Assembly: GCA_965205675.1 (NCBI GenBank)
Contig: OZ242186.1
Coordinates: 1,088,001-1,152,000 of the forward strand
Length of the DNA stretch: 64,000 bases
Direction: 5' to 3'
DNA from: Nitrosopumilus sp.
GTDB taxonomy: Archaea > Thermoproteota > Nitrososphaeria > Nitrososphaerales > Nitrosopumilaceae
A program made the position numbers and the translations under genes. The first letter of the stretch is position 1; each line of letters begins with the position of its first letter. The notes beneath the pieces were generated by a model, which did no database searches, was not told the DNA's origin, and saw only the letters and a list, made by a program, of their open reading frames with translations. This document shows positions 18,445 through 22,469 of this stretch, one piece after another.

Positions 18445-19536
18445 TACCCCAGATCATAAGTCTTTTCAATTTATTGTTCTTGCAAAATACTGATACATAT
18501 TCAAATTGAATTTGTGCGTTCTAAAATATTCCATAACTGTATACCTCATTTCATGAATAGATTCATAAAATTCTGATTCAACATTAACATGTTTGCACTG
18601 TCTCCAAACCTCTTCAATCATACTCAAATGTGGAGAACCTCTCAGAAGATATGCCAGTTTGACATCTTTGTTTTTACGCAGATATTTTTTTACATCATTA
18701 GCTTTGTGTTGCGGCGCTCTATCGACGATAACAAATATTTTTCCAAATTTTCTACGAGCTGCTTCCAGATAATCTATAAATGCAATTGAATTAAATTTTT
18801 CATACGATCTAAAGAAACTTTGATTATCATCATTTCCATAAACCAAAAATCTTTGATGTGATCCTCTCCAACGTACAATTAATCTTTGGTGTGCATCTGT
18901 CCAGTATTTTTTACCAAGACGTACATCGTCTACAAATACTGACTCGTCTTGGATAAATACTGTAAAACCTTTCTTTTTTGCCTTTTCTATGCGTGAAATG
19001 ATGCGGTTTTTCCACTTGCGGCACGTATCCTTGGATGCTGCTCGCACATGTACCTTTTGTGGAACCTTTGGTTTTAGATTCCATTTGTGCATCAAAGGAC
19101 GCACGTGAGTGATATGATATGTGATGTGTGTTCTGTAAAATATGAATTGTATCAGTTTTTTTGGAGTCATGCCGTCTGAAATTTTCTTAAATGCACGCTC
19201 TATTTTTTGTAATGCTTTATGTGAAATTAATGGCGGACGGCCAGAACGAGGGAGATCCTCCAGGCCCTCTAGTCCGTATTTTTCAAATGAATCAAGCCAA
19301 TTCCTTACAGAATTATATGTACAAAACATTTGGCTTGCAGTTTCAGCAATTGTGGATTCGTTGATTTTGATAATGCACATTGCATGTAATCTTGTTTTTT
19401 TGTGAATATTTTTTTCTTTTTTGTAGGCCTGGAGTAACTCGTCATTTGTGATGTCCATGAAATTATTTCTAATTACTGATCAAAAAGTATTGCTATTTGT
19501 TTTGAAAAATTGCAAAGAATTATGCTCCAAGGTATA
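18445..19536 (-). mobile_element. IS630 type B copy 2, intact transposase 18466-19458
   Basis: 330-aa HTH+DDE (QDES, DRAPQH, IEEVW); TACC-type ends. Confidence 0.93.
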
Positions 19537-19582
19537 CATGGCATCAGTTACAATATTTCTTAGAAAAACTAAAACGTTTTAG

Positions 19583-19981
19583 TTACTTTGCTAGTTGTGT
19601 AACTAAATCAGTAGAGGTAATTATTCCAACAATTTTACCATTTTCAGTAACTGCCAGTTTTCTAATTTTTTTACTAGTCATTCTTTGAGCTGCTGCAGAT
19701 ATTAGTTCATTGTGGTTTATCGTAATTAATGGGGAAGACATTATTTTTTCTACAAAAGTATCAAAAGGCAAATTATTTGCAACAATTTTGGTTGCAAAAT
19801 CTCTATCTGTCACAATTCCCACAGGATTTTCTTTTTCTTTTACAATGATTGCCCCTATCCCTCCCTGTTCCATCATTTTTGCAATTTGCAATGCCGTAGT
19901 AAAAGTAGGAACAGTAATCAAAGATTTAGTCATTATATCCTGAACTGCGATAGAAGAATATGCAAAATCTTTGTGGCTCAT
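19583..19981 (-). CDS. CBS-domain protein
   Basis: Two CBS repeats (VGIVTDRD, VGIITSTD). Confidence 0.9.
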   Translation of the reverse strand: MSHKDFAYSSIAVQDIMTKSLITVPTFTTALQIAKMMEQGGIGAIIVKEKENPVGIVTDRDFATKIVANNLPFDTFVEKIMSSPLITINHNELISAAAQRMTSKKIRKLAVTENGKIVGIITSTDLVTQLAK

Positions 19982-20063
19982 TATCTGTTTAAGGGATTAT
20001 AATATTTAGGTGATTGTAAACCTATTACTCCCAAACTAATTTTATGTAATTATCCATGTGAAT

Positions 20064-20254
20064 TGTTTTTATACATTTCCTCTCTTTCTATACATCAGGG
20101 CATGGCTTTCGCTAGAGAATGGTTTCAATCAAAAGATGGCAGACATGTATCCATACGAGACTATTCTCTCAATGCTATCTTCATCCTAGTTAGGATTGTT
20201 CGCAGTTATTAGACGAGGCCTTGTCCCTCAATAATTACAACGCGACTTGCAGTC
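20064..20254 (-). ncRNA. candidate bridge/seekRNA
   Basis: Hairpins plus segments matching the reconstructed target and donor junction; RNA ends unknown. Confidence 0.6.
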
Positions 20255-21250
20255 CTAACTATAATTTTGTACAAATTCTCTCCTCTCCTTTAACATCCAA
20301 TAAATCACCCTCAGGATCTTTGATGCACCAGCTACTGCAGCTTTGGATGATCCTCTTTTCTTTTTAATGCGATTGTAAAATTTTGTAATGTCACTATCCT
20401 TGGCATGAATTGCATGAGTGTGTATGCATTCTGTTAGAACCCATCTCAATGTCATGCTTCCCCTTTTTGTTATTCTGCCATGGTGTATTGTATCTGCAGA
20501 GTTTCTAACTGATGGTACAACTCCTGCATATGCACACAGTTTGTGAGAATCATTGAATCTCTCAATATCTGCAATCTCTGATGCAATGACAAGCGAAGAA
20601 TAATGCCCAATTCCCGGAATCGAGTTTATCAAAATTGCATCAGGATTAACTTTTACAGCAGCATACACTTTGGAATTAATCTCTGCAATCTGTAAATTAA
20701 GGTGGCTGATTTGTTGCAAGAATCCGTCTATTCTGTAATCTCCTAGTGCCTTGAGTCTTCTGTTGTATGTTTCAGTGAATGTAACTCCTGGAATCCTGAT
20801 TCCTTCCTGTAACAATATTCCATGAACTGAATTCTTGACAGATGTTCTCCATTGGATTAGTTTTTTCCTATATCTTACAAGCTGTCTTTGTTGTACAATC
20901 TTTTTGTCTGGAACATAACATGTGGCAATGTATCCTCCTCGTAAAAGATCTGCCAATATCTTGGCATCAATCTTGTCTGTTTTCTTTTTTGATGCAGCAA
21001 TTGCCTTTGTCAAATATGGGTTTGAGAGTGTGACGTTTTTGTATCCCAAAGTATCTGTGAGAAATCGATACGTGTCATACCAGACTGATGAGGATTCCAT
21101 TACAATATTTGCAGAAATTGGTATTTTTGCAAAATGCTTCCTGATAGATTCATGAGTGTTATCCACTTTGTCATTTTGTAATACTTTGCCTGCATCATCC
21201 ATTATTGCTACTTGAAGAAACTTCTTGTGCAGGTCAATGCCCACAAACAT
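20255..21250 (-). CDS. IS110 DEDD recombinase
   Basis: GIDLHK, MESS, KTDKIDA, SIPGIG, YAGVVPSVRNS; probable start MFVGID. Confidence 0.93.
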   Translation of the reverse strand: MFVGIDLHKKFLQVAIMDDAGKVLQNDKVDNTHESIRKHFAKIPISANIVMESSSVWYDTYRFLTDTLGYKNVTLSNPYLTKAIAASKKKTDKIDAKILADLLRGGYIATCYVPDKKIVQQRQLVRYRKKLIQWRTSVKNSVHGILLQEGIRIPGVTFTETYNRRLKALGDYRIDGFLQQISHLNLQIAEINSKVYAAVKVNPDAILINSIPGIGHYSSLVIASEIADIERFNDSHKLCAYAGVVPSVRNSADTIHHGRITKRGSMTLRWVLTECIHTHAIHAKDSDITKFYNRIKKKRGSSKAAVAGASKILRVIYWMLKERREFVQNYS

Positions 21251-21403
21251 GCCTTTCTTTGGTTTCTTCCTAATCTGTTTGTTTGTAATCTTTTTTGGAG
21301 CCGAGTATTTACGAACCTTGGAACTAGATTCATTTTTTATGCTATCTGATTTCCTTGCTTTCTTATTCACATATAGTTATTGGAAAAAACTATCAATATC
21401 ATT

Positions 21404-22469
21404 AGACCTCTTGCGTAATTAGACATATTTTACCATATTACACAAATTCCTTCACAGCAAGATCCAAAGCTAAGAACAACTTAACACATTTCATGTTAAC
21501 ATACAAGCAACTCTCAAAAAAGCCAAAATCCCTTCTCTCTTTTACTGGAGTGACTAGGCAACAGTTTGATGTGATTCTAAAGGATGTCAGAAAGAATCAC
21601 CGTATAGAAGAAAAGAAGAGACTATCCAAAGCAAAGAGAAAAAGAAGTATCGGAGCTGGGCGAAAGTTTGATTTGAGTCTTGAAGACCAGCTTGTAATGT
21701 TGTTTGTTTACTATCGGATGTACCTGACATGTGAATTGACAGGATATATGTTTGGATTAGACCAGAGCAACGTCTACAGAAACATCAGATTTAGAGCCTG
21801 CAGTAAGAAAAACAGTTCCTATTCCTGCAAAACTATACTCTGATTCCAAAAAAATGATGTACAGCAACTCCAACTGTTCTTTCCTGAATTAATTGCAATG
21901 ACTGATGGTACTGAACAACCAATCCCAAGACCCCAGAACAAAAAGAAAAGAAAGACTCACTATTCAGGCAAAAAAACACACAATAAAAAACCAAATCACC
22001 GTAAACCAGAAAGGTGAGATAATCCACAAACCTCCACATTCTCCAGGTAACATGATTATGCCATACTGAAAATAAAGTATCCTGCACTACACGAAGATGT
22101 GATGATATCTTATGACCTTGGGTATTTGGGAGTGGAAAAAGATTTTCCAGAACAGACAAGCATTCTACCATACAAGAAAAAGAAAGGAAAAAAACTGACC
22201 ATACATCAAAAGGAATGGAACAAGATGCAGTCAAGAATCCGAATAAAAGTAGAACATATTATCTCTCAAATCAAAAAGTTTAGGATTAATTCTGAGACAT
22301 TTAGGAATAGATTGTGCAGATATGATGCAATAAGTGACATCGTATGTGGAATTGTAAATTTCAAGACAAGATGGAAGCAAGAGTTTGTTGTGATTCCGTA
22401 ATCTCAGAAATTATTTGAAATTAAATTCAATGAAAGATAAGATTTTGTTTGTAATTACGCAAGAGGTCT
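21404..22469 (+). mobile_element. IS5 (ISL2-like) copy 3, several small deletions
   Basis: Same TIRs; ATT on both flanks. Confidence 0.92.

Follow-up and report, generated by a model that had tools for sequence, protein, structure and literature searches.

A 64,000-nt stretch of Nitrosopumilus sp. DNA (assembly GCA_965205675.1, contig OZ242186.1, positions 1,088,001-1,152,000), hereafter the window, carries an insertion, element A, that is very probably an intact IS110-family insertion sequence of IS1111-type architecture with a right end encoding a bridge RNA or seekRNA. Coordinates below are those of the window unless marked as genome coordinates. What we see here, and what carries this reading, are the copies, ends and empty sites of the element, the covariation that supports an RNA structure in its non-coding region, and the covariation of guide sequences in that RNA with target and donor sequences; from these we infer the production of the RNA and its binding to the recombinase, as well as the chemistry, the position of the core and a promoter at the circle junction. 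RNA-guided IS110/IS1111 recombinases were discovered recently and are in heavy use. To our knowledge, all that have been characterised are bacterial, and we know of no genetic tools for ammonia-oxidising archaea. The locus would add a well-delimited native bridge-RNA-like system in these archaea, the many natural guide/target pairs of the family read like a ready-made reprogramming experiment, and the arrangement of the ends points to an archaeal counterpart of the circle-junction promoter that could be put to the test.

Copies, ends and empty sites of element A

The genome, a single contig of 2.01 Mb with 33.7% G+C, holds ten full-length copies of element A with 98-100% identity and identical ends, among 57 matches in all, many of which are fragments. 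Five solo copies have the same junctions, which on the + strand of the window read (T/A)(G/A)TAATTAT followed by CCATGTGAAT ... ATTCACATATAGTTAT and then T. The tetranucleotide TTAT, found at 20050-20053 and again at 21377-21380, is common to target and element, and each boundary of the element is therefore ambiguous by 4 nt. Read on the gene strand, the left end is flank-CCA, ATAA, CTATATGTGAAT... and the right end is ...ATTCACATGG, ATAA, TTACA-flank, with the 8-bp subterminal repeat ATGTGAAT set inward of the probable core TA, by 5 nt at the left end and by 3 nt at the right. An earlier prediction made from the letters of the window (the original prediction) had placed the repeats (ATGTGAAT at 20056-20063 and ATTCACAT at 21365-21372) and both occurrences of TTAT at these same positions.

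The empty site obtained in that prediction by joining the flanks is present uninterrupted at paralogous places in the genome, which read ...TGTAATTATTGG... and equal the joined flanks exactly, and the ends are the same across copies. The empty site at genome 1994500 fits the flanks of the window copy and of copy c2, and those at genome 1629585 and 1159235 fit the flanks of copies c5 and c8. A different target, AGTTAT at the window-right end with TGTAATTATAGTTAT as its empty site, was considered and rejected (0 genome occurrences, versus seven for TGTAATTATTGG). The target of the window copy (20009-20053 plus 21381-21403) sits in a repeat of ~68 bp with seven genome copies, three of which hold element A and four of which are empty, and three of those four empties have GAGTAATTATTGG instead of TATGTAATTATTGG. 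Joints across the element were sought in the contigs of four DNA-type runs. Contigs from two public runs (X3 and X4) join 20049 to 21377, skipping 1327 nt with the 4-nt ambiguity; the sides of these joints are only 20-26 nt long and possibly come from a paralogous empty site, and they were excluded as independent support. Two further contig joints with inserted letters fit a variant paralogue of the ~68-bp repeat.

A conserved RNA structure downstream of the recombinase gene

Some 200 nt separate the stop codon of the recombinase gene from the right tip, versus the 9-10 nt by which the GTG start stands off from the left tip. We predicted a structure for this non-coding region with RNAalifold on a MAFFT alignment of 33 non-coding regions from Nitrosopumilus-like archaea, and the structure became visible only once the relatives were aligned. 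It begins 4 nt ahead of the stop codon and consists of two modules, of which module 1 resembles a target-binding loop and module 2 a donor-binding loop. Across the alignment, 96.6% of cells pair, versus 29-42% when partners are slid by 1-3 columns; compensatory (both-sided) changes occur in 15 of the 26 pairs, versus 4-8 in the slid controls, and helices 1, 3 and 4 contain such pairs; the covariation score was reached by none of 500 shuffles. G-U pairs are confined to the gene strand (for instance, nine G-U at pair 4/88), which fits a sense-strand RNA. An internal-loop structure backed by covariation, as is characteristic of bridge and seekRNAs, is thus present, and the right end would encode such an RNA of ~130-190 nt, starting around the recombinase stop codon.

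The TCGC/GCGA stem and GAGG/CCTC hairpin recognised in the original prediction turn out to be the conserved helices P2 and P3, and the two target guides it proposed make up the opposite strands of the internal loop that separates these helices. It had also suggested comparing fold and covariation across homologues, a comparison in which both the structure and the guide/target covariation described next were seen.

Guides of module 1 covary with target flanks

The two strands of the module-1 loop would each read one strand of the target. The target of the 5' strand, CAA-TA-ATTACAA, runs from 2-3 bases of the left flank through the core into the right flank, and the 3' strand repeats left flank and core (TCCAA-TA in the window copy and TCTAA-TA in copy c4). 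To these strands correspond the two short matches noted in the original prediction, and both lie where it placed them: the 11-mer reads CAATAATTACA on the + strand (20229-20239), which is TGTAATTATTG on the opposite strand, and the second segment, TTATTAGA (20206-20213), equals TCTAATAA reverse-complemented. Dinucleotide-preserving shuffles of the non-coding region gave an exact match of 11 nt or longer across the junction by chance 13 times in 5000 (~0.003), and random genome windows of 191 nt did so 51 times in 5000 (~0.01). The 11-nt match alone is thus unusual, not overwhelming, and it is the family-wide covariation that makes the predicted target guides solid.

For this comparison, loop strands were cut from the model-based alignment, and both ends of each element were located. 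Against the right-end flank, the 5' loop has a mean longest exact run of 6.14 nt (72 distinct pairs, 50 distinct guides), versus 3.16 when guide labels are permuted (standard deviation 0.15, maximum 3.78), and none of 2000 permutations reached 6.14; elements in which no right end was found were left out, as were L099:2814, L099:2365 and L123. Exact runs measure 9 nt in the window copy, 10 nt in the related loci L061, L085, L091 and L082, and 11 nt in L072. The 3' loop, read up to a conserved UAA and compared with the left-end flank, gives a run from the core of 2.70 versus 0.37 permuted, again with 0 of 2000 permutations reaching the observed value (54 pairs, 34 guides; elements in which no left end was found, L099:2365 and L123 left out), and a mis-cut loop of a second element, element B (see below), lowers the observed value. 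Covariation with the target flank, which is expected of a bridge or seekRNA, is therefore found on both sides of the target. The AC that follows the core in the 3' loop tracks the left tip in the variants L110, L116 and L127, and does not in L074, L098 and L112.

Near-identical scaffolds in a single genome bear different guides that each fit their own flank (11 of 12 positions in L072, 10 in L085, 9 in L071, and L070 too). The chromosome of one Nitrosopumilus metagenome-assembled genome (MAG; loci L070, L071, L072, L085, L086, L087, L109, L114 and L135) has at least seven different 5' guides, and in its copies the scaffold, donor loops and ends are identical across guides. From these sequences, the guide diversity of that MAG looks like natural retargeting.

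Guides of module 2 covary with the element tips

The 3' strand of the module-2 loop, AU-NNN-UA, can be set against the right tip, CACAT-NNN-TA, and the triplets agree in 50 of 52 distinct elements (L099:2814 and L130 left out). The concordant triplets are GGA (29), AGA (14), GGG (5), GAG (1) and AGG (1), corresponding to five tip variants; the two discordant elements are one decayed copy and one loop with a 1-nt deletion. TATCCAT at 20148-20154, the reverse complement of the ATGGATA that the original prediction matched to the circle junction, lies in this strand and tracks the right tip. Pairs of 5' strand and left tip include AUAG/CTAT, AUGGU/ACCAT, ACGGU/ACCGT, ACUGU/ACAGT and AUGAU/ATCAT. 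The donor covariation of a bridge or seekRNA is thus found for the 3' strand and in part for the 5' strand. "Handshake" bases past the core in the module-2 3' loop were compared by eye with the right flank and were inconsistent across families.

Points of doubt and alternative explanations

Several observations weigh against the reading of element A as an intact element with a guide RNA. The RNA, its binding to the recombinase and transposition are predictions from sequence, and a search for RNA sequencing runs that contain the locus listed none. Since the relatives share ancestry, the permutation figures overstate independence and significance, and the flank match is poor in L052, L087, L135, L079 and L130. 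The module-2 5' strand tracks the left tip only partly, with a complementary run of at least 5 nt in 10 of the 22 distinct loop/tip combinations. Folded as a single sequence, the non-coding region has a z score of -0.50, with 61 of 200 shuffles at least as stable, and it matches no Rfam family: a scan of 19500-22000 (E <= 10) gave three matches, all with E of at least 1 and well under gathering scores, none of them in the non-coding region. An identical frameshift is present in 8 of the 10 copies in the genome, and by protein sequence the element is no closer to an ISEc11-family transposase than to IS110-type proteins (see below). The crossover register relative to the 5' loop also varies, being -1 in 13 pairs, 0 in 22, +1 in 26 and other in 11 (a few at +2). 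It differs between sub-families with equal loop length, a common scaffold and an identical donor (-1 in element A, +1 in the L072 group), and as such is not predicted by a rigid IS621-like geometry; if real, the variable register would mean a looser RNA-DNA geometry than in IS621.

One could suppose that the element is real, with loop/flank matches that are chance in AT-rich DNA and a right end that is an ordinary structured 3' untranslated region or terminator. The matches are indeed short, the genome is poor in G+C, the single-sequence fold is unremarkable and the 11-mer taken alone has a chance of ~0.003-0.01. Nevertheless, the guides covary with flanks over 50 distinct guides, a result reached in none of the permutations, and the donor loop tracks five right-tip variants, so that this explanation, which we regard as extremely improbable, is already contradicted by target- and donor-guide covariation. 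A guide acting as single-stranded DNA within the element, like the guide sequences of IS200/IS605, would leave the same covariation, which alone cannot separate RNA from same-strand DNA. Several points speak for RNA: the recombinase family has been shown to use RNA (PMC11187229, PMC11208160), the helices contain many sense-strand G-U pairs, which are weak in DNA, and the guides lie 130-180 nt inside the end, away from the cleavage sites. We consider guiding by DNA very unlikely, if slightly less so than chance matching.

The state of the copies bears on a different concern, namely that the family once used a bridge RNA and that element A is here a dead, immobile relic. The full 371-aa frame survives in the window copy and c3 alone; the other eight copies have one common lesion, a 2-bp deletion plus two substitutions, which stops the frame after about residue 54. 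Element B, which is nested, has a frameshifted recombinase in every copy seen, and there are many decayed fragments. Yet copies differ from the window copy at just 4-27 positions across ~1.3 kb aligned, which argues for recent spread, two copies do retain the full frame, and the frameshifted copies occupy several distinct sites, which suggests that they were mobilised, plausibly in trans. A relic is the least improbable of these alternatives and still an unlikely one. The common lesion lies at the position corresponding to window 21200-21215, where GTAGCAATAATGG has become GTAATAAATGG, and an in-frame ATG just behind it could yield a protein without the first catalytic Asp.

The recombinase

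The recombinase called intact in the original prediction is indeed a full open reading frame of 371 aa with both domains of the IS110 family, PF01548 (E 3.4e-25, residues 43-188, the N-terminal DEDD/RuvC-like domain) and PF02371 (E 1.8e-21, residues 247-332, the C-terminal domain), and a basic, serine-rich N-terminal tail of ~40 aa precedes its MFVGIDLHK motif. Among bridge recombinases of solved structure, it matches ISCro4 (E 5.5e-12) and IS621 (E 2.7e-9), with which it can be aligned over nearly its full length, and its motifs GID, ME, KTDKID and PSVRNS line up with their counterparts in the ISCro4 chain. Residues E52, D92, D95 and S251 (331-aa numbering) are invariant in alignment A1; the acidic residues and C-terminal serine of the IS110 family are thus in place, and these four residues are probably catalytic. 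In 38 of 39 distinct relatives, an open frame leads from the GTG in the left repeat into the DEDD domain, and the frame is kept even though the stretch from GTG to DEDD domain varies between 42 and 213 nt.

The closest annotated proteins in a plasmid collection are haloarchaeal (33-37% identity over 96-100% of the query). An ISEc11-family transposase has 26.4% identity over 88% of the query (E 6e-7), and the serine motif of element A, G-V-V-P-S-V-R-N-S-A, stands where the IS1111 group has GL-P----S(T)G. The IS1111 type assigned in the original prediction accordingly holds by architecture; by protein sequence, element A is about equally far from ISEc11-family (26%) and IS110-type proteins, and its IS1111 assignment is best read as one of architecture.

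Comparison with known RNA-guided recombinases

Element A shares with ISEc11, ISKpn4 and ISPa11 (Siddiquee et al. 2024, PMC11187229) a DEDD transposase with a PF02371 C-terminal domain, and with the IS1111 group as described there the subterminal inverted repeats, a long non-coding region downstream of the gene, and insertion specific for site and orientation. The 8-bp repeat of element A falls within the 7-17 bp given for subterminal inverted repeats of the group (PMC11208160). In the IS1111-family seekRNAs of PMC11187229, the match to the top strand precedes (5') that to the bottom strand, both cover a common part of the target, and the non-coding region is downstream of the gene, all of which is the arrangement in element A; for 93% of the IS1111 elements in ISfinder, bridge RNAs were predicted in the right end (Durrant et al., PMC11208160). 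In its predicted anatomy, the RNA of element A is an IS1111-type seekRNA or bridge RNA. Unlike the IS1111-group elements, element A has an archaeal host, a 371-aa protein whose basic N-terminal tail begins within the left repeat, the divergent serine motif and low transposase identity noted above, and a donor module that is a simple internal loop.

Similar to IS621 and ISCro4 (Durrant et al. 2024, PMC11208160; PDB 8wt6, 9t56), element A has a predicted two-loop RNA with a target-binding loop followed by a donor-binding loop, each of which would read both strands around a short core. In contrast to these elements, whose left end encodes the RNA ahead of the gene, element A has its RNA downstream, the order of strand use is reversed, and the core is probably TA, not CT. 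The IS621 circle reconstitutes a promoter (PMC11208160), and the circle junction of element A would likewise bring a promoter to the element; the promoter of IS621/ISCro4 is a sigma-70 promoter driving the RNA, whereas that of element A would be a candidate archaeal TATA box driving a leaderless gene.

Haloarchaeal IS110-family elements, such as the ISHvo9 family of Haloferax volcanii pHV4, resemble element A in their proteins, as given above. When the RNA model was run on haloarchaeal and ISEc11 loci, weak matches only were obtained (E 0.012, 0.28 and 0.43), and unlike the RNA of element A, the haloarchaeal ones (E 0.012 and 0.28) are upstream of the gene. They lie at L140:518-636 and L141:522-667, in the ISHvo9 family and a Halorubrum element, and the RNA may be at the other end in the haloarchaeal clade. 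Archaeal IS110 recombinases as such were already known, and large-scale bridge RNA mining has been done (PMC11208160). Our literature search linking bridge RNA or bridge recombinase with Thaumarchaeota or names beginning with Nitrososphaer found no report, with the limit that supplementary tables of mining papers may list such elements, and a search for Nitrosopumilus with IS110 found nothing on the subject of bridge RNAs.

Proposed mechanism and circle-junction promoter

In the mechanism we propose, the 5' strand of module 1 would pair with gene-strand DNA over the core and right flank, and the 3' strand with the opposite strand of the left flank and core. The donor would be the joined ends of an excised circle, ...CACATGGA-TA-ACTATATGTG..., with the 3' strand of module 2 matching the right tip and core and the 5' strand matching the left tip. 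Strand exchange by the DEDD/Ser recombinase would follow at a short core, probably the TA within the shared ATAA, and the element would land at TGTAAT-TA-TTGG-like sites with no real duplication. After excision, the recombinase gene could be switched on through a TATA-like box joined to its GTG.

This last step is suggested by the layout of the two ends. The element provides just 9-10 nt of sequence upstream of the GTG, which lies inside the left repeat and so leaves no room for a promoter of the gene's own. At the other end, a TATA-like box (TATAAAAA, with GGAAATG ahead of it) points out of the element. Of 53 distinct right ends, 49 have an all-A/T hexamer (TATAAAAA, TTTAAAAA, TTTATAAA and similar) with GAAA ahead at this fixed position; among control window starts, two that overlap the box by 5 nt reach 34/53 and 44/53, and those away from the box reach at most 11/53. 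With the ends joined, the box starts 28-30 nt ahead of the GTG (30 nt in element A), which is the spacing between TATA box and leaderless start in archaeal promoters. The predicted circle junction would read ...CACATGGATAACTATATGTG..., and the box would meet the GTG only in the excised circle, giving a leaderless mRNA after excision. In the integrated copy of the window, the box faces a CBS-domain gene (PF00571, E 2.3e-27; 19583-19981, minus strand) that starts ~70 nt beyond the element, and the insertion may supply or replace the promoter of that gene.

Taken further, these features would describe an IS1111-like bridge-recombinase clade in ammonia-oxidising archaea, with a leaderless gene, a switch resembling a TATA box and transcription factor B recognition element that exists only in the circle, unusually freely evolving guides, which in some copies would be directed against the left tip of a sister element, and varying registers; we offer this wider picture tentatively, at somewhat below an even chance.

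Relatives and spread of the RNA family

Of 201 genomes sampled from the order, 32 hold recombinase homologues. When species-representative genomes were scanned, 79 related loci came up, nearly all in records titled Nitrosopumilus, Nitrosopumilaceae, Cenarchaeum or names beginning with Nitrososphaer, which agrees with the thaumarchaeal host named in the original prediction. The covariance model built from the 33-sequence alignment had 97 matches across the 98 sources searched and marked 30 places in the genome of the window. It matched in 24 of 151 genomes sampled across the class, this genome included, and in 2 of 32 other genomes of the same genus, a patchy spread of the kind expected of a mobile element.

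The genome contains two more sub-families, B, with a frameshifted recombinase, and C, which is intact and has four copies. Element B has ~57-62% protein identity to element A and interrupts the left tip of element A between TAACTA and TATGTG at eight or more places (for example, G000:C1 441790-443150 and L007:1500-3050, in the same genome outside the window). Its module-1 loops match this site, with the complement of AUGUGAA on one strand and AACUAUA on the other. Composites of B and A occur at A-type targets and thus seem to move as a unit. An intact sub-family C copy at genome 1157725-1158967, ~6-7 kb past the end of the window, has left tip GTAACCATATGTG and right tip CACATAGATA and adjoins the unoccupied A-type target at genome 1159235.

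A few elements of the archaeal family stand under bacterial labels, namely L108, on a 1281-bp contig titled Campylobacterales, and L065 and L066, in a MAG titled "bacterium". The L108 contig barely exceeds the length of the element, so mis-binning is the likely cause of its label.

Features of element A and neighbouring genes

Table 1. Positions of the features of element A and its flanks in the window.
Feature	Position	Strand	Remarks
Whole element A	20050..21380	-	1327 bp plus 4-bp TTAT common to target and element
Target flank, left-end side	21381..21403	.	+ strand TGGAAAAAACTATCAATATCATT; second half of the ~68-bp repeat
Left tip	21373..21380	-	ATAACTAT on gene strand; probable core TA, then first bases of right-donor arm
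Left subterminal inverted repeat	21365..21372	-	ATGTGAAT on gene strand; contains GTG start at 21370-21368
DEDD recombinase gene	20255..21370	-	371 aa; GTG start inside left subterminal repeat
Conserved structured non-coding RNA region (model R1)	20134..20261	-	Covariance-model match, 116.5 bits, E 6e-27
Module 1, target-binding-loop-like	20189..20259	-	Helices P1, P2 and P3
P1	20259-20253 with 20195-20189	-	Outer stem overlapping stop codon
P2	20245-20242 with 20203-20200	-	TCGC/GCGA stem of module 1
Module-1 loop, 5' strand	20230..20241	-	GUUGUAAUUAUU; complementary to gene-strand target CAA-TA-ATTACAA
P3 hairpin	20229-20215	-	GAGG/CCTC hairpin of module 1
Module-1 loop, 3' strand	20204..20214	-	GUCUAAUAACU; repeats gene-strand left flank and core, then AC of left tip
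Module 2, donor-binding-loop-like	20141..20186	-	P4, internal loop, hairpin P5
P4	20186-20182 with 20145-20141	-	Module 2 stem
Module-2 loop, 5' strand	20171..20181	-	AAGAUAGCAUU; AUAG complementary to CTAT of left tip
P5 hairpin	20171-20156	-	Module 2
Module-2 loop, 3' strand	20146..20155	-	UAUGGAUACA; AUGGAUA repeats right tip ATGGA and core TA
TATA-like box	20066..20073	-	TATAAAAA on gene strand; GGAAATG ahead of box; points out of right end
Right subterminal inverted repeat and right tip	20054..20063	-	ATTCACATGG on gene strand
Target flank, right-end side	20040..20053	.	+ strand TTTTATGTAATTAT, shared TTAT included

Other mobile elements flank element A at 21493-22401 and 18466-19458. They comprise an IS5/Harbinger-like gene split into two open reading frames (HTH_Tnp_4, E 1.4e-10; DDE_Tnp_4, E 1e-10) and an IS630-like transposase (DDE_3, E 2.8e-15).

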